47,347 bases of DNA from a virus (Duplodnaviria > Heunggongvirae > Uroviricota > Caudoviricetes), in the IMG/VR virus record IMGVR_UViG_2737471835_000007; one strand, given 5' to 3'. The stretch's first letter is position 1. Each line of letters starts with the position of its first letter. Below, in pieces: positions 18,614-45,614 of this stretch. The translations under genes were made by a program, and so were the position numbers. Under the pieces are notes generated by a model. The model saw only the letters and a list, made by a program, of their open reading frames with translations, was not told the DNA's origin and searched no databases.

Positions 18614-19642
18614 TTATGCGTATTTGGCAGACAATAGGGTGATCCCCTCAGGGCGGAAGTTCCAGCCCGGCGTCGCGCGCATCGTATACAACGTGGTCAG
18701 GCCGCCATCCGGCATAGGGGACGGAATTTCCGTCGGCGCTGCCATATCACAGAACATCACGTTGACGGCCTGCTGGTTAGGTACCAGCGTGGAGAAAATA
18801 TTGGTGTTAATGGTGTGACGCGCTTCCGGAACCTCAATCGTCGGGTTCGTAACGATGATCAGGTCATTACCACCAGCGCCTTTACCGATCAGCGTGTCAT
18901 CCTGGCAGAAAATGATGTCGTCGCCTGTCGCCTTATCGGCGACGTCTTTAACCATCGTTCCCACCGTTCCGGTACCACCACCAGGACGCTGGTAACTGGT
19001 CAGCTCAACAATTCCTGTCCACTCCAGCGCCTTCATGAATCGCTGTGGGCTCAGAATAACAGTCGTTAATGGCTGCCCCAGCAGCAACATGCGGGTTTTC
19101 TGGTCAGCAATCAGGCCAAGCATAAATTTAGCCATCTCACCGGAATCCCAAGTGGTATATGAATCATTCCCTTTGCTGTCGTTGCCCAGATTCAGCGTCA
19201 CTGCGTTCGGGGAGTTGGTGATCCCCTCGTTATTAGCTGCATTCACGCCATACAGCAGCATATTACGCAACATTTGAGCGTGTCCCTGACGGTTAGCCAG
19301 GCGCAGGCCTTCAATCAGAGAATAGCCCCAGCGATCTGCTGCATCAGTATCGAGATAGCTGTATTGCGAGCGGGAAGAAATTCGGTAAGTCATCATTCCG
19401 TCATAGCCGCCAGAGATACTGGAAGACGGTAACTGACCCGGCAGAGACTGGCTGACCTGCGCCTGCGAGGTCATGCGCAGATATTTCTGATAGACCATCA
19501 AATCACTGGAACTGATTTTTACCGCTGGAGCACCACCAGCCAGGACTTCAAACGCCCCGGAAGCCATGCTCTGTTGCACGATCATTTCCGGCAGCACCAT
19601 TGACGGCGACACAATAGTAGTCGCAGGAGTAAATGCGCTCAT
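18614..19642 (-). CDS. major capsid protein
   Basis: 342 aa, downstream of scaffold-like gene in a portal/scaffold/capsid module. Confidence 0.7.
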   Translation of the reverse strand: MSAFTPATTIVSPSMVLPEMIVQQSMASGAFEVLAGGAPAVKISSSDLMVYQKYLRMTSQAQVSQSLPGQLPSSSISGGYDGMMTYRISSRSQYSYLDTDAADRWGYSLIEGLRLANRQGHAQMLRNMLLYGVNAANNEGITNSPNAVTLNLGNDSKGNDSYTTWDSGEMAKFMLGLIADQKTRMLLLGQPLTTVILSPQRFMKALEWTGIVELTSYQRPGGGTGTVGTMVKDVADKATGDDIIFCQDDTLIGKGAGGNDLIIVTNPTIEVPEARHTINTNIFSTLVPNQQAVNVMFCDMAAPTEIPSPMPDGGLTTLYTMRATPGWNFRPEGITLLSAKYA

Positions 19643-33664: not shown

Positions 33665-34438
33665 ATGACATCCTTTCAATTATCTTTGATTTCTCGTGAA
33701 ATTGACGGCGAAATAATACATTTACGTGCCAAAGATGGTTACATAAACGCCACATCAATGTGTAGAACTGCGGGCAAACTGCTCTCTGATTACACTAGAC
33801 TCAAAACTACTCAAGAGTTTTTTGACGAATTATCACGCGATATGGGAATTCCCATATCGGAGTTAATTCAATCATTTAAAGGTGGAAGACCTGAAAACCA
33901 AGGGACATGGGTGCATCCTGACATCGCTATTAATCTAGCGCAGTGGCTATCGCCCAAATTTGCAGTCCAGGTTTCAAGATGGGTTCGTGAATGGATGTCA
34001 GGGGAAAGAACTACAGCAGAAATGCCTGTACATTTAAAACGGTACATGGTTAATCGTAGTAGAATTCCTCACACGCACTTTTCTATTCTTAATGAACTGA
34101 CATTCAACTTGGTTGCACCTCTTGAACAAGCAGGGTACACACTCCCAGAAAAAATGGTTCCTGACATTTCACAAGGAAGAGTATTTTCACAATGGTTAAG
34201 AGATAATAGAAACGTAGAACCCAAAACATTCCCTACCTATGACCATGAATATCCCGATGGTCGCGTATACCCTGCAAGGCTGTACCCAAATGAATATTTA
34301 GCAGATTTCAAAGAACATTTTAACAATATTTGGTTGCCGCAATATGCCCCGAAATACTTCGCTGACCGGGACAAAAAGGCTCTCGCCTTGATTGAAAAAA
34401 TTATGCTACCTAACCTCGATGGCAATGAACAGTTCTAA
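33665..34438 (+). CDS. KilA-N domain protein
   Basis: N-terminal ...LRAKDGYINATSMCRTAGKLLSDYTRLKTTQEFFDEL...WVHPDIAINLAQWLSPKFAVQVSRWV is a KilA-N/APSES-type domain. Confidence 0.8.
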   Translation: MTSFQLSLISREIDGEIIHLRAKDGYINATSMCRTAGKLLSDYTRLKTTQEFFDELSRDMGIPISELIQSFKGGRPENQGTWVHPDIAINLAQWLSPKFAVQVSRWVREWMSGERTTAEMPVHLKRYMVNRSRIPHTHFSILNELTFNLVAPLEQAGYTLPEKMVPDISQGRVFSQWLRDNRNVEPKTFPTYDHEYPDGRVYPARLYPNEYLADFKEHFNNIWLPQYAPKYFADRDKKALALIEKIMLPNLDGNEQF

Positions 34439-36455: not shown

Positions 36456-37121
36456 TCAAACAAAACCAGCCGCTTTCCGGCGTTCATATTCCTGTTTCAG
36501 CAACTCAATTGGTGTTGGCCCCGACGGGCGTTCTGGTGCTGCCAGTTGCCGCCGTACGGGCGGAACGCTGAAGCCGTCACCAACATGCTTTGCCCATTTC
36601 GCCAGTTGCCGTTCTGCAAGTCGTTTTAACTCCCCTTCGGTCATCTGGCGCTCAATCCCCTTTGAACGCATCTCGAGGCAAATGTGATACAGCACAGGCT
36701 GAGACCACGGGTATTTATCGCTTCCGTCGTATCGCCAGGACTCGTTGCGCCAGCGTCGGTACTCCTCCATCACAGCATCCACCGTCAGACCGAATGGATT
36801 GGCCCCGCTTTCCGAAATCAGCGCCACAAACTCAGCCAGGTCCGGAGGCCATGTTTCACCCGTCCGGCAGCGGTCCATGCACTGGCGGCAGACCTGTCGG
36901 ATTTGCTGCTCAGTCATCGCACCAATCTGTGCAATCCAGAGCTTCGAAGGTGCGGCCCCGTTCTTCTGGGTCCAGCGGTTCGAATAAACCTCCCCCATGA
37001 GTTCCCACAACTTCCAGGCCGTTTCCGTCGCTGATAAATCCGTTTTCACGTTCCCACTGCTCACGTGCTGCCCGAATTTCCTGAACTGCCCGTGATGCGG
37101 TGCCACCTGGTGCTGCTGCAT
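36456..37121 (-). CDS. replication protein P-like (helicase loader)
   Basis: Central/C-terminal region aligns by eye to lambda P as recalled (MTEQQIRQV..., [23 protein letters not shown]); true start uncertain. Confidence 0.6.
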
Positions 37122-38034
37122 GGTTCACCCCCTTGCTGACTGGTTTAACCTGCGCCCTGACGTGATTTACGTGACGGGCGAATTTCTGCTCCCACTGAAC
37201 CTGCGTGAAAACTTTCCCCTCCGCTGCCCAGTAGTCCCGGAAGGCGGCAAGTTCAGCTGGTGTAAATTCCGGCTCCGGCAGAGCCACTCCCCACAGAGCT
37301 GCCCGCCGTCGAAAATCCAGCGACGGATGCCAGCCATCAGTCATCGGAAATTTCCCGATGGGTTCGTTCAGGCCTTCCAGGTAATCAGGTTCCGCTGTCT
37401 GCAACGGCACGCCATTTGCCTCACTGGCCGGAGCACTCTCGCGCACGCGCGCGTTATGTGTGGGGTTTATATATCTGTTATCTGTTATCTGGATACCGCA
37501 TGACAAAGCGTTAGCCTTATCCTTAGGCTTATCCTCAGGCAAAGGGATTGCCTTATCGAATGCCATCCCCAAAGCCTCAGAAACCCCATAGGACGCGGCT
37601 CTCAGCGATTCCCTGGCCTCCCATTTGAGAGGACAATCAGGAATTAAAGCGAATGCCTTTGCCCAGGATTTAATGACATTTATCGAGTTTGGCGGATTGT
37701 GTTTCGCAGCATTCGGGAGCCAAAAAACTCTGGCTTTGATATCTGCTTTCACCATGCCAAGATTCATGGCTTCGCCTAAGGCTAAGTCAAAGGCTTCGAT
37801 ATCCCACCCCAACTCTTCAGCCATTGCTGCCCGCCCGGCTTTAAACAACCCAGGAATAATCCCGGTAAATGGACTGGTCAGCAGATAAATAAACAAACTC
37901 TGTCCACTTGGAGGCAGAGGAGATAACGCCCTAAATTTGGGATCATCCCATATCGTTATTTTTACCTTGCGATAAGGCTCATTGTTTGCCTTAGTTTTTG
38001 GCATGGGATTTGGCATATTTTTAGCCTTAACCAT
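36910..38034 (-). CDS. replication initiation protein (O-like), ori embedded
   Basis: 375-aa ORF upstream of P-like gene containing iteron-like repeats and AT-rich tract; first ATG start at MVKAKNM. Confidence 0.5.
37460..37565. other. putative origin of replication (iterons plus AT-rich tract)
   Basis: GCCTTATCC-type motif three times at 37512-37560 and CTGTTAT direct repeats in AT-rich tract 37466-37492. Confidence 0.4.
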
Positions 38035-38113
38035 AATTGCCTCATCTGGTGTCGAACCTTCCTCCGGATATAATCTGTGATTCCCCAATCAACAGAACCA
38101 AAGGAGGTTCGAC

Positions 38114-38366
38114 ATGTCTTTTACATTTGATAATGTCTGCTCCATTCCCCCAAAAATTTTGGGTGGACAGTATTACTGGAACCGAGTCAAAAATTTTTAG
38201 CACCTCAGGAATGCTCAATCGCGGAGGAGTAAAAATACTTGCCCAGGAATTCCACACACAGGAGCTAAATTACGGGGCTTATCACAAACTAGAGTTGATA
38301 ATGGATGCAACCCAAATTGATGAACTGATCGTTGCCCTACAAAAGCTAAAAGAAAAGATGTCATAA
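38114..38366 (+). pseudogene. small gene apparently split by a frameshift at an A5T5 run
   Basis: AAAGGAGG ribosome-binding site and ATG at 38114 open a 28-codon frame that stops after the A5T5 run; the other frame continues to 38366. Confidence 0.3.
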
Positions 38367-38669
38367 TCACCCCCTAAAAATTACGTGGCGCAGCGGTTGA
38401 GCTTTGCTGTAGTCGATCTCATCGCCATACTCAATATCAAGAGCTTGTCCCTGCGCCAGTTCCATCCACCGAATGTGTTCTGCGGCTTTTTCTTTATCTT
38501 TGATATTGATGAACAACAGCGTTGACGAGGGATACCCGTTAACAAGATGGCGATGCAGAGAGAGTCGTATGGCATACCAGGCAACATTTCGGGCTATACG
38601 CTGAAGCAATGTTTCGCCTTCCAGTGTTTTAAGTCGGTATTTTTTCAGTTCATATTTTTCCATCACCAC
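38367..38669 (-). CDS. hypothetical protein
   Basis: 100-aa ORF downstream of ydaT-like gene. Confidence 0.45.
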   Translation of the reverse strand: MVMEKYELKKYRLKTLEGETLLQRIARNVAWYAIRLSLHRHLVNGYPSSTLLFINIKDKEKAAEHIRWMELAQGQALDIEYGDEIDYSKAQPLRHVIFRG

Positions 38670-38675
38670 ATCACC

Positions 38676-39098
38676 TTAATGAACAACAACAGAATCGCCG
38701 GACGAACCACCGCCGCTGAAATGCGCTTTCCGGTAAACGGCCTGGACTGCATCATCATGCGCATCAATTGCCGTACTTAACGCTTCCTGCGCCGCCAGTA
38801 ATGCACGGCGTTCCAGGGTATCGAAGATGCAGAGTCGGTGACGCAACTCGCGCGGAAGGATTGCCAGAATTGCTGGGATCAGCTTCTGAATTTTTTCTCT
38901 TTGCGTTTTCGTTTCACCTTTCAACCAACGGTGATAGATATTCTGCTGATTGTTCCAGTCCTTGCCTGGAACCAGGGGCAATTCGCCGCCCCCCTGGCGC
39001 AGATATTCTTCAGTAATTGCATTGGCTACCCATGCCTGCCCTTTTTCGGCTGCCAGGGCAAACAACACTGATTCGATGTGCTCATGCTTGATTTTCAT
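38676..39098 (-). CDS. ydaT: YdaT-like protein (Rac immunity-region toxin partner)
   Basis: 140 aa downstream of the YdaS-like gene and divergent from the RacR-like repressor, as in Rac. Confidence 0.7.
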   Translation of the reverse strand: MKIKHEHIESVLFALAAEKGQAWVANAITEEYLRQGGGELPLVPGKDWNNQQNIYHRWLKGETKTQREKIQKLIPAILAILPRELRHRLCIFDTLERRALLAAQEALSTAIDAHDDAVQAVYRKAHFSGGGSSGDSVVVH

Positions 39099-39120
39099 GA
39101 ATCATTTGCCTCTTGATGTT

Positions 39121-39417
39121 TCAGGTATGATCAAATGAGGATTTGTTACTGTCATTTAGTTGCTTCACTGACATATTCTGCGAACAACATGCCGAACGTC
39201 GTAAATATGACCAGTCAATATCAGGACGAAGCTCTTCGCACAGAACCTCACCTCTTGTTGCTCGTTCAATTGCTGGACATCTCTCGGCAGGCAATTGACG
39301 TACCCCTTTGATCCATTGATTTACGCTTGGAGGTGATACACCTAAAAGCCTAGCCATTGCTGATTGCCCACCAACAACAGCACAAGCTTGCTTGAATGAA
39401 TAGTTCTCTTTTTTCAT
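39121..39417 (-). CDS. ydaS: YdaS-like Cro/HTH protein
   Basis: 98 aa with HTH ...SAMARLLGVSPPSVNQWIKG; divergent from the repressor-like gene. Confidence 0.75.
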   Translation of the reverse strand: MKKENYSFKQACAVVGGQSAMARLLGVSPPSVNQWIKGVRQLPAERCPAIERATRGEVLCEELRPDIDWSYLRRSACCSQNMSVKQLNDSNKSSFDHT

Positions 39418-39540
39418 CGAATGAACTCCAAAAACACACAGAAATATTAGGCGACGCCTAACATAAATGTCAATAGGCTATGCCTAATGCGATAAAGGTA
39501 GGGATTGCCTAATGCAATGAGCATAGGAGAATATTAAGCA
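39418..39540. promoter_or_regulatory. divergent promoter/operator region with TTAGGC-type repeats
   Basis: Near-palindrome ATTAGGCGACGCCTAA plus further GCCTAATGC repeats between divergent genes; related TAGGCAT motifs again at about 40100-40160. Confidence 0.5.
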
Positions 39541-40017
39541 ATGCTTAGTGGTAAAGACTTAGGCCGAGCGATAGAGCAGGCCATTAACAAAAAAATCGCA
39601 TCGGGATCCGTCAAATCAAAGGCGGAGGTCGCACGCCACTTCAAAATCCAACCACCATCAATTTATGACTGGATTAAGAAAGGCTCCATAAGTAAAGATA
39701 AACTTCCAGAATTATGGCGTTTCTTTTCTGATGTTGTTGGTCCAGAGCATTGGGGGCTTAACGAATACCCCATACCAACCCCCACCAATTCAGATACAAA
39801 AAGTGAACTTTTAGATATAAACAACCTTTATCAAGCAGCCTCTGATGAAATAAGAGCGATTGTAGCTTTCCTGTTATCTGGAAATGCTACAGAACCAGAT
39901 TGGGTTGACCACGATGTTCGCGCCTACATAGCAGCGATGGAAATGAAAGTGGGTAAGTATCTGAAAGCTCTAGAATCTGAACGGAAAAGCCAGAACATCA
40001 CAAAAACTGGAACTTAA
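39541..40017 (+). CDS. racR: RacR-like prophage repressor
   Basis: 158 aa, N-terminal HTH; divergent from the ydaS/ydaT-like pair. Confidence 0.65.
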   Translation: MLSGKDLGRAIEQAINKKIASGSVKSKAEVARHFKIQPPSIYDWIKKGSISKDKLPELWRFFSDVVGPEHWGLNEYPIPTPTNSDTKSELLDINNLYQAASDEIRAIVAFLLSGNATEPDWVDHDVRAYIAAMEMKVGKYLKALESERKSQNITKTGT

Positions 40018-40324
40018 ACTTATATGGTCTGACGGAAAACTCCTGGATTCCGTTATTTAACCCCCCATCACTTTCTCCTGTCGCCATCACCTATTAGGTT
40101 ACACCCAAAACATTAGGCATAGCCTATTGACAATCAATTAGGCATTACCTATAGTTCCAGCATACCACCCACCCCGCCCCACAGAACGCCGGGCAATACT
40201 TCGAGTTACCAGGCAGTGGTAAGGGGTTAAGTAGCCAGCCCGAGGCGTATGAACATGACGGCGGGATTCAAATTTTGCAGTGCAGCAGTTAGTTCCGCCA
40301 CCCGGCGTTAAGGGGAGAGATAAG

Positions 40325-40459
40325 ATGGTGCATTACGAAGTAGTTCAGTATTTGATGGATTGTTGCGATATCACTTACAGCCAGGCTGTACAGGCTCTAC
40401 GCAGCAACGACTGGGATCTCTGGCAGGCAGAAGCCTCTATCCGCAACAACAAAATGTGA
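40325..40459 (+). CDS. small protein (YdaF-like)
   Basis: 44-aa ORF MVHYEVVQYLMDCCDITYSQAVQALRSNDWDLWQAEASIRNNKM; below the ORF-track length cutoff. Confidence 0.4.
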   Translation: MVHYEVVQYLMDCCDITYSQAVQALRSNDWDLWQAEASIRNNKM

Positions 40460-40469
40460 GGTGCGAAAA

Positions 40470-40622
40470 ATGCAAAAAATCGACCTCGGCAATAACGAAT
40501 CCCTGGTGTGCGGCGTGTTCCCCAACCAGGATGGAACGTTCACCGCCATGACGTATACCAAAAGCAAGACATTCAAAACTGAAACGGGCGCACGTCGCTG
40601 GCTTGCCAGAAATACTTGCTAA
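40470..40622 (+). CDS. small protein (YdaG-like)
   Basis: 50-aa ORF MQKIDLGNNESLVCGVFPNQDGTFTAMTYTKSKTFKTETGARRWLARNTC. Confidence 0.4.
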   Translation: MQKIDLGNNESLVCGVFPNQDGTFTAMTYTKSKTFKTETGARRWLARNTC

Positions 40623-41042
40623 TCCATTATTTGGATTAATTCAATATTCTCGCTGTAGGGGTATAGCAGAAACCACCAAAGCCCGGAGGTGGTGAAATAA
40701 AACCGGGCACAACACGAAGTCGCATTTCCGATATCCATAAAGAGTCGGTCTTGTCTGTTAAATTTAAATGGTGGGAGTGCGCCTCCGGTTGTGGATAACA
40801 ACACTGCTGTGTGTAGTCTTGGCGGCATCAGTTTTTTCTTGAAGTTCGACTGATGTCCGCCCTTTTTAAAGTGAATTTTGTGATGCGGTGAATGCGGCTA
40901 AGCGCACGCGGCACAGTTAAAAGTCATGTTAGTCCTTATTGGTTTGGGTGGGAAAGCCGACTGTAATTGTTAACTGGTTGCAGTCACCTGGAGGCACTAG
41001 GCACCGCATCAACAAAGTTCATTTGTAAAAATGGAGATAATT

Positions 41043-41264
41043 ATGATTGCACATCACTTCGGAACTGATGAAATACCACGTCAGTGTGTGACTCCTGGTG
41101 ACTATATTCTTCATGAAGGCCGGACATATATTGCCTCGGCAAACAATATTAAAAAGCGAAAACTTTATATTCGTAACCTGACTACAAAAACATGCATTAC
41201 TGACTGCATGATTAAAGTCTTCCTCGGTCGTGATGGTTTACCTGTAAAGGCGGAGTCATGGTGA
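41043..41264 (+). CDS. kilR: KilR-like cell division inhibitor
   Basis: 73 aa from [16 protein letters not shown]; position upstream of racC/recET as in Rac. Confidence 0.65.
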
Positions 41265-41885: not shown

Positions 41886-44537
41886 ATGAGCACAAAACCA
41901 CTCTTCCTGTTACGGAAAGCGAAAAAATCATCCGGTGAACCTGACGTCGTCCTGTGGGCAAGCGACGATTTTGAATCGACCTGTGCCACTCTGGACTACC
42001 TGCTCGTTAAGTCAGGTAAAAAACTGAGCAGCTATTTTAAACCTGTTGCCACGAATTTTCCTGTCGTTAATGACCTTCCCCCTGAAGGTGAGATCGATTT
42101 TACCTGGAGTGAACGCTATCAACTCAGCAAAGACTCAATGACCTGGGAACTAAAACCGGGAGCAGCGCCAGACGACGTTCACCACCAGGATAATGCTCAA
42201 GAAACCAAAGAACTGGCGGGAGGCCAGGAAGAAAACGCGCAGGCAGACGCCCACGAGGATTGCCAGGATTGCGAAGTCTCTGTAGCCACTTTGCGGTTCA
42301 CACAGCGTCTTCTGCACATTTTTACGTATGCAGCCGGGGATCGGAAATACCTGCATCATGCCACCCGTGAACAACGCAAACACATTACTGCTCTTGAGAT
42401 GGATCAGGAAAACAGCTATGTCCAGAATCTGCTGTTGGCCATACGCAGCATGGCAGAACCGACAACTCTGGATAATGCCGCCCTGCTCCGCCTGACTGAT
42501 GCAATTAAGGCAGTGTTCTCTATCACGAAAAAACATCAGCCCTATGAATTTAAGAATTTCATTTCAGCCTGGCTGGATACCGAACACATTGATCGCGATC
42601 TTCTGACAAAAGAATGGCGAAAAGGAAATCGTGTTTCACGCATCACGCGCACGGCTTCCGGCGCTAATGCTGGCGGCGGGAACCTCACCGATCGCGGCGA
42701 AGGTTTCGTTCACGATCTGACGTCACTGGCGCGCGACGTAGCCACTGGCGTACTGGCTCGTTCAATGGACGTGGACATTTATAACCTTCATCCGGCACAC
42801 GCTAAACGTGTCGAGGAAATTATCGCTGAAAATAAACCACCCTTTTCTGTTTTCCGCGACAAATTCATCACCATGCCTGGTGGGCTGGATTATTCCCGCG
42901 CCATCGTGGTTGCGTCCGTAAAAGAAGCACCAATTGGGATCGAGGTCATCCCCGCACACGTCACTGAATATCTGAACAAAGTACTGACTGAAACCGATCA
43001 TGCCAACCCTGATCCGGAAATCGTGGATATTGCCTGCGGTCGCTCCTCGGCCCCGATGCCGCAGCGAGTAACAGAAGAAGGAAAACAGGACGATGAAGAA
43101 AAACCACAACCATCTGGCGCAATGGCAGATGAACAGGCAACGGCTGAAACAGTGGAACCGAATGCAACTGAACATCATCAGAACACGCAGCCGCTGGATG
43201 CTCAGTCACAGGTAAATTCTGTTGATGCGAAATATCAGGAACTGCGGGCAGAACTCCAGGAAGCCCGGAAAAACATTCCATCAAAAAATCCTGTCGATGC
43301 CGATAAATTGCTTGCTGCATCACGTGGTGAATTTGTTGACGGAATTAGCGACCCGAACGATCCGAAATGGGTTAAGGGGATCCAGACTCGCGATTCTGTG
43401 TACCAGAACCAGCCAGAAACGGAAAAAATCAGCCCGGATGCGAAACAACCTGAGCCAGTAGTGCAACAGGAACCGGAAATAGTCTGCAATGCCTGCGGTC
43501 AGACTGGCGGGGATAACTGCCCTGACTGTGGTGCGGTGATGGGCGACGCAACATACCAGGAAACATTCGGTGAAGAGAATCAGGTTGAAGCTAAGGAAAA
43601 AGATCCGGAGGAAATGGAAGGCGCTGAACATCCGCACAATGAGAATGCTGGCAGCGATCCGCATCGCGATTGCAGTGATGAAACTGGCGAAGTCGCAGAT
43701 CCCGTAATCGTAGAAGACATAGAGCCAGGTATTTATTACGGAATTTCGAATGAGAATTACCACGCGGGTCCCGGTGTCAGTAAGTCTCAGCTCGATGACA
43801 TTGCTGATACTCCGGCACTGTATTTGTGGCGTAAAAATGCCCCCGTGGACACTACAAAGACAAAAACGCTCGATTTAGGAACCGCTTTCCACTGCCGGGT
43901 ACTTGAACCGGAAGAATTCAGTAACCGCTTTATCGTAGCACCTGAATTTAACCGCCGTACAAACGCCGGAAAAGAAGAAGAGAAAGCGTTTCTGATGGAA
44001 TGCGCAAGCACAGGAAAAACGGTTATCACTGCGGAAGAAGGCCGGAAAATTGAACTCATGTATCAAAGCGTTATGGCTTTGCCGCTGGGGCAATGGCTTG
44101 TTGAAAGCGCCGGACACGCTGAATCATCAATTTACTGGGAAGATCCGGAAACAGGAATTTTGTGTCGGTGCCGTCCGGACAAAATTATTCCTGAATTTCA
44201 CTGGATCATGGACGTGAAAACCACAGCGGATATTCAACGATTCAAAACGGCTTATTACGACTACCGCTATCACGTTCAGGATGCATTCTACAGTGACGGT
44301 TATGAAGCACAGTTTGGTGTGCAGCCAACTTTCGTTTTTCTGGTTGCCAGCACAACTGTTGAATGCGGACGTTATCCGGTTGAGATTTTCATGATGGGCG
44401 AAGAAGCAAAACTGGCAGGCCAGCAGGAATATCACCGCAATCTGCGGACCCTGGCTGACTGCCTAAATACCGATGAATGGCCAGCTATTAAGACGTTATC
44501 ACTGCCCCGCTGGGCTAAGGAGTATGCAAATGACTAA
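41886..44537 (+). CDS. recE: exonuclease VIII RecE
   Basis: 883 aa; C-terminal PD-(D/E)xK exonuclease-type region; 8-nt overlap with recT start, the canonical recET arrangement. Confidence 0.85.
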
Positions 44538-45363
44538 GCAACCACCTATCGCAAAAGCCGATCTGCAAAAAACTCAGGGAAACCGTGCACCAGCAGCAGT
44601 TAACGATAAGGATGTGCTGTGCGTGATTAACAGCCCGGCAATGAAAGCGCAACTGGCAGCAGCTCTGCCACGTCACATGACAGCGGAACGCATGATCCGC
44701 ATTGCTACAACAGAAATCCGTAAAGTACCGGAACTAAGAAACTGTGACTCGACGAGTTTTATCGGTGCCATCGTACAGTGTTCACAGCTCGGACTTGAGC
44801 CAGGTAGCGCCCTCGGTCATGCATATCTGCTACCGTTCGGCAACGGAAAAGCAAAAAACGGTAAGAAGAACGTACAGCTGATCATCGGTTATCGCGGCAT
44901 GATCGACCTTGCCCGTCGATCAGGTCAAATCATCAGTCTGTCAGCTCGTGTTGTCCGTGAATGTGATGAATTCAGCTATGAACTTGGCCTTGATGAAAAA
45001 CTGGTTCATCGTCCCGGTGAAAACGAAGATGCCCCTATAACCCATGTCTATGCTGTTGCAAAACTGAAAGACGGAGGAGTGCAGTTTGAAGTCATGACCC
45101 GCAAACAGGTAGAAAAAGTTCGCGACACACACAGCAAGGCGGCAAAAAACGCAGCGTCAAAAGGGGCGTCGTCCATCTGGGATGAACACTTTGAAGACAT
45201 GGCCAAAAAGACAGTGATACGAAAACTGTTCAAGTATCTGCCGGTATCTATTGAAATCCAGCGTGCAGTATCGATGGATGGAAAAGAGGTGGAAACAATT
45301 AATCCAGACGACATATCGGTTATAGCCGGGGAATACAGTGTAATCGATAATCCAGAAGAATAA
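44530..45363 (+). CDS. recT: recombinase RecT
   Basis: Start [13 protein letters not shown]; RecT-family motifs ...[15 protein letters not shown]...[15 protein letters not shown]... Confidence 0.9.
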
Positions 45364-45407
45364 TCCAGCCCGGCGGTGTAATGCACCGCCAACGTGAGAT
45401 AGTTTTT

Positions 45408-45614
45408 ATGACAAAAACTTTGAGATATGACGATGTTAAACCATGTCCGTTTTGTGGTTGTCCATCAGTAACGGTGAAAGACATTTCAGGATATTACCGG
45501 GCAAAATGCAACGGATGCGAATCCCGAACTGGCTATGGTGGAAGTGAAAAAGAAGCGCTCGAAAGATGGAATAAACGAACCACTGAAAATATTAATGGAG
45601 GCGTTCATGTATAA
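45408..45614 (+). CDS. ralR: restriction alleviation protein Lar/RalR-like
   Basis: 68 aa from MTKTLRYDDVKPCPFCG; Cys-rich small protein directly after recT as in Rac. Confidence 0.65.
   Translation: MTKTLRYDDVKPCPFCGCPSVTVKDISGYYRAKCNGCESRTGYGGSEKEALERWNKRTTENINGGVHV

Follow-up and report, generated by a model that had tools for sequence, protein, structure and literature searches.

A Rac-type racR/ydaS/ydaT immunity module with a candidate OL/PL-like operator-promoter unit downstream of the repressor gene

[quoted passage not shown] In 2017 Krishnamurthi et al. reported that a 123-bp region contains three GCCTAA/TTAGGC repeats, and demonstrated RacR binding by EMSA and ChIP (PMC5700373). 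A DNase I footprint of RacR published in NAR in 2022 yielded the motifs ATTAGGC and (T/A)TAGGC-N3-GCCTA(T/A), and the same work mapped the ydaST promoter, PydaST (-35 TTGACA, -10 TAATAT), together with three promoters of racR, of which one gives a leaderless transcript; mutating the PydaST hexamers abolished promoter activity, and RacR repressed PydaST at the lowest concentrations while limiting its own promoters (PMC9638921). In 2023 the repeats were counted as four inverted repeats, RacR was found to be an octamer by size-exclusion chromatography, its C-terminal domain was modelled, and the octamer was taken to place its four dimers on the four repeats between racR and ydaS, without looping (PMC11014345); the 2023 paper called the RacR regulon, ydaFG included, uncharacterised. 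In 2025, footprinting defined the YdaT-box, ATGATT-N6-AATCAA, and a reverse promoter, PracR4, was also defined, which YdaT activates in K-12 from its box (PMC11879457).

Are YdaS and YdaT toxins or regulators? Both were named toxins in 2017, since racR is essential and their expression kills, and loss of RacR is lethal in K-12 (PMC5700373, PMC5700377). In reply, Jobling argued that the locus is a lambdoid immunity region in which YdaS and YdaT take the parts of Cro and CII, citing an earlier study that, as described there, saw no toxin-antitoxin behaviour (PMC5917428). Later work established that both proteins bind DNA and regulate promoters (PMC8630535, PMC11879457).

The locus that we analysed lies in a 47,347-nt stretch of Caudoviricetes DNA (IMG/VR record IMGVR_UViG_2737471835_000007; the whole stretch is called the window below) and is a Rac-type racR/ydaS/ydaT immunity module, near-identical to the K-12 copy. 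The first-pass annotation had proposed a divergent repressor-like gene and a ydaS/ydaT-like pair, and the ORFs agree with it to the nucleotide. The repressor gene, at 39541-40017 on the plus strand, is racR: its 158-aa product scores 245 bits against the NCBIfam equivalog model NF049929 (RacR; cut-off 200), as an orthologue does, and consists of an N-terminal HTH domain and a C-terminal domain. On the minus strand, and thus divergent from racR, lie ydaS (39121-39417, 98 aa) and ydaT (38676-39098, 140 aa), annotated as "toxin YdaS" and "toxin YdaT", respectively. We describe the first as a Cro-like HTH regulator, which matches Pfam PF15943 YdaS_toxin above cut-off (107.7 bits, 2.6e-31) and, secondarily, P22_Cro (3.4e-09), and the second as a CII-like tetrameric transcription factor, which matches PF06254 YdaT_toxin above cut-off (43.7 bits, 3.9e-11) and has relatives with solved structures (8bt1, 3c4r). 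A search of the PDB returned no sequence relative of RacR. Identity to the K-12 Rac proteins is 157/158 for RacR, 98/98 for YdaS and 138/140 for YdaT. The 2.1 kb around the module match the DNA of E. coli A17, in which racR, ydaS and ydaT are annotated, at 100% identity, while the window as a whole matches that strain at 99.6% identity for positions 1-42182 only, its recE-recT part being different; at least 80% of the 2.1-kb region is present in 523 of 5426 complete E. coli genomes. The prophage around the module is apparently of full size: it extends from integrase to tail fibres and includes genes for replication, lysis and the virion.

Pfam gave no Peptidase_S24 match in this RacR, so that the self-cleaving domain of a lambda-type switch was not found in it. 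An alternative route of induction, a LexA-controlled antirepressor, was considered and dropped, as the window holds no perfect LexA box (CTGT-N8-ACAG) despite the presence of a KilA-N gene, which lies at 33665-34438.

[quoted passage not shown] The palindrome ATTAGGCGACGCCTAA is at 39446-39461, with a perfectly palindromic core, TTAGGCG-A-CGCCTAA, and the further repeats GCCTAATGC are found as two copies, at 39482-39490 and 39507-39515. That these repeats are operators, as the first-pass annotation had assumed, is borne out by K-12, where TTAGGC-N3-GCCTAA has been shown experimentally to be the RacR operator and where the half-sites are the same as here (PMC5700373; PMC9638921). Four 15-bp sites can be recognised. 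Site 1, TTAGGCGACGCCTAA (39447-39461, no mismatches), lies between the -35 and -10 of PydaST and is the published O1, which is protected at the lowest RacR concentration (PMC9638921), and site 2, ATAGGCTATGCCTAA (39473-39487, one mismatch), abuts the -35 of the same promoter. Site 3, GTAGGGATTGCCTAA (39498-39512, two mismatches), occupies a conserved position in loci of the E. coli type, -43 relative to the racR ATG. Site 4, TTAAGCAATGCTTAG (39534-39548, three mismatches), overlaps the racR ATG at 39541, as the published O3 does (PMC9638921), and in relatives it is stronger, with one or two mismatches at -7.

The promoters of the region are likewise those of K-12. PydaST, the PR-like promoter, occupies 39444-39473 on the minus strand (-35 TTGACA, 18-nt spacer, -10 TAATAT; 10/12 in the promoter scan) and is overlapped by the repeated operators, whereas the published -10 hexamer of PracR3, GAGAAT, which is PRM-like and gives a leaderless racR mRNA, is present at 39527-39532 on the plus strand. 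Within ydaS, also on the plus strand, we predict the PRE-like reverse promoter PracR4 at 39295-39327, with the K-12 hexamers TTGACG (-35, 39295-39300) and TACGCT (-10, 39322-39327) present (PMC11879457). The YdaT-box ATGATTCATGAAAATCAA spans the ydaT start codon at 39088-39105 on the minus strand; it is an exact match to ATGATT-N6-AATCAA and the single site without mismatches in the whole window. Two terminator-like hits, at 39444-39464 and 40114-40126, were rejected as terminators, being the operator palindromes themselves. Overall the intergenic region is identical to that of K-12 at 114 of 123 positions, and because all nine differences fall in linkers or N3 spacers and none in a half-site, the K-12 experiments should carry over. 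It is on this basis, proteins and half-sites being essentially identical, that RacR binding, repression of ydaST and lethality on loss of RacR are transferred to the present locus.

The module had been described in the first-pass annotation as both a prophage switch and a conditional toxin system, and of these the switch stands while the toxin label is contested, YdaS and YdaT being DNA-binding proteins of Cro- and CII-like kind (PMC5917428, PMC11879457). If they were nevertheless true toxins, RacR would be kept only as their silencer and the prophage would be stabilised by a toxin-repressor addiction system, a reading that accommodates the failure to delete racR unless ydaS and the intergenic region are removed too and the lethality of ydaS or ydaST expression (PMC5700373, PMC5700377), and that is in keeping with the toxin labels that Pfam and RefSeq still apply. 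Such a system is difficult to reconcile with the properties of the proteins, however. RacR, YdaS and YdaT are all three DNA-binding regulators; YdaS and YdaT carry HTH domains and have mapped sites and target promoters, their genes occupy the positions of cro and cII, and the controls with a non-binding YdaT mutant suggest that the DNA-binding-dead protein is harmless. The locus lacks the co-transcribed toxin and antitoxin genes of a type II toxin-antitoxin system, in which the antitoxin neutralises the toxin by protein-protein binding: racR is divergent from ydaST, and its product works at the level of transcription instead of by capturing a toxin. Regulators are also what the wider distribution of the module suggests, because a RacR-type domain, a YdaS partner and the same operators recur in other phages alongside a classic S24 CI-type repressor, because YdaT is freely exchanged (for alleles of 35-37% identity within E. 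coli) or is missing, being undetectable in other genera, and because the module sits here in an apparently full-size prophage. Together with the argument already published by Jobling (PMC5917428), these observations make an addiction system improbable in our judgement; the evidence agrees with a lambda-type switch whose CI is RacR, whose Cro is YdaS and whose CII is YdaT.

A lambda-type switch would have a second operator cluster with an outward promoter beyond the repressor gene, and at the level of sequence that is what we found. Related motifs had been noted downstream of racR and recur there at 40113 and 40138, with a weak one at 40094. The first two, TTAGGCATAGCCTAT (40113-40127, one mismatch, OL2-like) and TTAGGCATTACCTAT (40138-40152, two mismatches, OL1-like), are candidate sites exactly 25 bp apart in a cluster located some 95 bp beyond the stop codon of racR. 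They frame a predicted PL-like promoter at 40127-40155 on the plus strand, pointing toward ydaG (-35 TTGACA at 40127-40132, 17-nt spacer, -10 TATAGT at 40150-40155), which at 11/12 was the best match of the promoter scan in 38300-40700. The last T of the OL2-like site is the first base of the -35, and the OL1-like site occupies the spacer of the promoter and runs into the -10, a placement that mirrors the layout of PydaST; moreover, the segment 39468-39489, which comprises site 2 of the intergenic region and its -35, forms a perfect 22-nt inverted repeat with 40111-40132. The third site, TTAGGTTACACCCAA (40094-40108, three mismatches), is of uncertain status as a possible OL3, having two mismatches in E. 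ruysiae and in some E. coli loci and being absent outside Escherichia. The first genes 3' of the promoter are ydaG (40325-40459) and ydaF (40470-40622), both on the plus strand, with a DUF1391 match and 39/44 and 46/50 residues, respectively, identical to K-12; Rfam returned no structured RNA in the 165-nt ydaG leader. The downstream module is identical in K-12. The motifs that the first-pass annotation had left uninterpreted thus form a complete predicted operator-promoter unit, and we infer that the cluster at 40113-40155 is probably the OL/PL counterpart of the Rac-type phages.

Could these motifs have arisen by chance? A motif search across the window, the check that had been suggested for the half-site, gave an answer that depended on the motif chosen. 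The bare hexamer TTAGGC is not enriched (15 found vs 19.5 expected), nor is the 15-mer at up to three mismatches (20 vs 16 expected in the whole window), and it is the 15-mer together with its clustering that carries the signal. With up to two mismatches there are seven sites in the window vs 1.5 expected, five of them within 700 bp, and three pairs of sites are spaced by 24-26 bp. Among 300 random 47-kb sequences from a first-order Markov model (matched in dinucleotide frequency), none reached seven sites or five within 700 bp, and none had such a pair. The two isolated sites, at 19111 and 37523, fit chance at about 1.5 expected per window, and that at 37523 belongs to another repeat family, GATAAGGC.

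The relatives of the locus were collected from GTDB genomes and IMG/VR and reduced to 33 distinct repressor proteins. The downstream module is present for 32 of these 33 RacR-type classes: in 31, the gene is followed by two sites with up to two mismatches at a spacing of exactly 25 bp, and in one further class the same module carries one extra substitution. The exception without a downstream pair is a Klebsiella locus (L009) that is also without ydaS. The distance from the repressor stop codon to the module ranges from 61 to 2738 bp with constant orientation, which shows that the repressor gene and the operator can be separated by other genes, much as rexAB lies between them in lambda. Among 25 distinct 46-nt modules the half-site cores and the TTGAC of the -35 are invariant while the N3 spacers and linker vary; conservation of the half-sites is partly built into this result, since resemblance to the consensus was how the sites were chosen, but no selection was made for TTGAC, the 25-bp spacing, the position of the -10, the orientation or the location. 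Over 257 kb of sequence from related loci, the two clusters account for 153 of the 167 sites that have up to two mismatches, and the remaining 14 compare with 8 expected by chance. The 32 classes include betaproteobacterial relatives in which an S24 peptidase domain of LexA/CI type is joined to the N-terminal domain of RacR type. The relatives in L011 and L012 match Peptidase_S24 at 1.2e-13 and 3.7e-15, respectively, and S24-type relatives keep the YdaS-type partner and both operator clusters.

It might still be argued that the motifs at 40094-40152 are a non-functional echo of the OR region, left by chance or by an old duplication, or that they are extra landing sites for RacR without a promoter, and the published models do indeed manage without the downstream stretch. 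An echo would hardly be expected, however, to retain its pair of sites, 25-bp spacing, TTGAC and -10 position across the Gamma- and Betaproteobacteria while the intervening N3 spacers and linker vary, to stay downstream of the repressor gene despite up to 2.7 kb of inserted genes, or to show a 24-26-bp pair of the kind that the random sequences lack. There is also evidence from expression. When RacR is lowered in K-12, ydaG, ydaF, kilR, ydaE and racC rise 40-70-fold, ydaG and ydaF by about 40-fold, while racR itself goes down (PMC6765115), and CRISPRi of racR raises the same left-arm genes (2026 preprint). Since the left-arm genes rise as racR falls, their induction is not explicable by read-through from the racR promoters, which a Rho-dependent terminator within racR brings to a halt in any case (PMC4150792). 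We therefore regard an echo or a promoterless set of landing sites as very improbable, and continue with the reading of the cluster as an OL/PL counterpart.

Taken together, we think it highly likely that the module is a Rac-type lambdoid immunity switch of cI-cro-cII-like design, that the downstream cluster is its OL/PL, and that the lethality of RacR loss is prophage derepression. In such a switch, RacR dimers bind the 15-bp TTAGGC-N3-GCCTAA sites, four of which fill the 123-bp gap and cover both the strong leftward promoter PydaST and the PRM-like racR promoters, so that RacR bound at OR keeps ydaS and ydaT silent and autoregulates racR; this much has been demonstrated in K-12, where the DNA has the same half-sites. 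RacR at the downstream pair would silence an early-left operon, presumably comprising ydaG, ydaF, kilR, recET, xis and int. YdaT, for its part, binds the box at its own start codon and stimulates PracR4 inside ydaS in K-12, and should do so here, the sequences concerned being identical. Were RacR lost, both outward promoters would fire, and the lethality seen in K-12 would then be that of derepression, in which YdaS and YdaT have the role of regulators, further damage comes from KilR and others, and no dedicated toxins are involved.

What purpose might an octameric repressor serve in this arrangement? The lambda repressor CI bridges OR and OL through a loop. As RacR is an octamer in solution, its four dimers could do likewise, two at OR and two at OL joined by a loop of about 650 bp, although we consider this the more speculative part of the mechanism. 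A broader proposal combines the loop with two further claims: that the OL/PL counterpart is genuine and previously undescribed, and that the RacR N-terminal domain, YdaS, OR and OL constitute a portable immunity cassette of phages from Gamma- and Betaproteobacteria with an exchangeable C-terminal domain, a self-cleaving S24 domain in one lineage and a different oligomerisation domain in Escherichia. This combined proposal we put forward tentatively, judging it slightly more apt to fail somewhere than to hold in full.

How much of this is new? The module itself adds nothing, being a near-exact copy of a much-studied cryptic-prophage locus, and the repeats between racR and ydaS have already been published as RacR operators, so that the main finding is already known. 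The downstream OL/PL part is probably novel: the text of the main RacR papers makes no mention of a PL/OL counterpart for Rac itself, and a full-text literature search with the operator sequences returned nothing relevant. Its value is modest, in that the downstream operator-promoter pair would explain why the whole Rac left arm (kilR, recET, xis, int) comes on when RacR drops, would give the octamer another reading, OL-OR bridging as against four dimers on one region, and provides laboratories that study RacR with a defined target of 60 bp. The relatives with an S24 domain may be seen as a natural experiment in which the same operators are placed under different induction signals, and if the C-terminal domain is truly exchangeable, then different signals have been mounted on the same operator logic.

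In comparison with known systems, the locus is closest to Rac of K-12, which has the same genes in the same order with the same 123-bp gap and in which the operator half-sites, the PydaST, PracR3 and PracR4 hexamers, the YdaT-box and the downstream pair of sites are identical to those of the window. The two part at a mosaic joint at the ydaT stop codon, where K-12 has ydaU/V/W and the window has DnaT-like and lambda-P-like replication genes instead; sieB is absent from the window, and K-12 Rac is a 23-kb remnant whereas the prophage in the window is near full size. The likeness to lambda is one of organisation. In both, the repressor gene is transcribed divergently from a cro-like gene and is flanked by two outward promoters, the one downstream of racR being predicted, which are overlapped by several operators of partial symmetry spaced at about 25 bp; a reverse promoter responds to a CII-like activator, the repressor mRNA is leaderless and the repressor forms an octamer. 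In contrast, there is no detectable sequence similarity to lambda beyond the HTH, the Rac sites are 15 bp of the form TTAGGC-N3-GCCTAA with four in OR, OL and OR are about 0.65 kb apart vs 2.4 kb in lambda, and YdaS is reported not to repress racR (PMC9638921). As the C-terminal domain of RacR is not an S24 peptidase, RacR is lambda-like in its layout rather than a member of the CI protein family. Prophage CP-933P of E. coli O157:H7, with its paaR2-ydaS-ydaT region, differs in its repressor, PaaR2, in its operator, which consists of GTTTAGTAA-type palindromes, and in the paaA2-parE2 toxin-antitoxin pair within the repressor operon. It nonetheless shares with our locus the YdaS/YdaT-type analogues of Cro and CII and an octameric repressor, and it is in CP-933P that a PL/OL counterpart has been both described and tested (PMC8630535).

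In several loci of the E. coli type (L023, L031, L033, L045, L093, L125, L128 and L164), racR, ydaS and the operators are near-identical to those of the window, but the ydaT allele is just 35-37% identical to the window's and ydaG is absent. Because ydaT alleles diverge in this manner beside near-identical racR, ydaS and operators, we place this CII-like gene outside the fixed immunity unit. The ydaT stop codon also coincides with a sharp mosaic joint, at window 38675/38676, and in many E. coli genomes the match begins at this joint (query positions 376-379) and extends rightwards only. To the left of it the window prophage carries a 100-aa ORF followed by DnaT-like and lambda-P-like replication genes, whereas the Rac prophage of K-12 has ydaU/V/W.

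The DnaT-like gene (36910-38088, minus strand) contains, at 37470-37560, the repeats GATAAGGC/GATAAGCC, followed by AGATAACAGATAACAGATATATAAAC, and it is these GATAAGGC/GATAAGCC repeats that account for an isolated RacR-like match at 37523. Judged by its sequence, this segment looks like a set of iterons with an AT-rich stretch and, by analogy with lambda O, may be a replication origin lying within the initiator gene.

Beyond Escherichia, a RacR-like gene whose product is 62% identical was found in Klebsiella sp. R390 (L009:3001-3477), with three upstream sites retained. This locus has neither a ydaS-like gene nor, within 2.9 kb, the downstream site pair, and could represent an immunity region that is orphaned or has decayed. 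A RacR protein 99% identical to that of E. coli is encoded on a 5.2-kb contig (L005, JARKOR010000130.1) binned as 'Candidatus Nanosynbacter'; this contig most probably comes from E. coli and was placed in that MAG by a binning error. Fusion proteins (L011, L012, L097-L108 and L123), in which an N-terminal domain of the RacR type (73-79% identical) is joined to a C-terminal region of 200-290 aa, are encoded in genomes of Betaproteobacteria (Pigmentiphaga and an Achromobacter MAG) and on about 12 IMG/VR contigs whose host is not known. In the genes at L011:3001-4098 and L012:3001-3906 the C-terminal part is Peptidase_S24 (Pfam, 1.2e-13 and 3.7e-15, respectively); in most of the IMG/VR proteins this region was examined for the G-x-S-M-x-P motif only, which had no match in the fusion protein of L123 (371 aa). 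The C-terminal domain of Escherichia RacR is different from those of the fusion proteins, and shorter.

The window (1-47347) is apparently a near full-size Rac-like prophage, with int, xis, ralR, recT, recE, kilR, immunity, replication, hokD, lysis, terminase, baseplate and tail fibre genes. One gene among the baseplate genes is annotated as 'type I restriction endonuclease', and a gene beside that for terminase as 'anti-CBASS Acb1 family'. Compared with E. coli A17, the window is 99.6% identical across 1-42182 but divergent in the recE-recT part (42183-45437).

To the right of the module, sieB, which in K-12 lies between ydaF and kilS, is absent from the window prophage (interval 40622-40648), and K-12 homology picks up again at 40648. 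Upstream of kilR are two Rfam matches on the plus strand, the first to DicF (40808-40862; 42.8 bits, slightly below the gathering score of 48) and the second to STnc100 (40864-41050; 33.9 bits). The DicF-like part aligns to the 3' part of the K-12 sRNA annotated as kilS.
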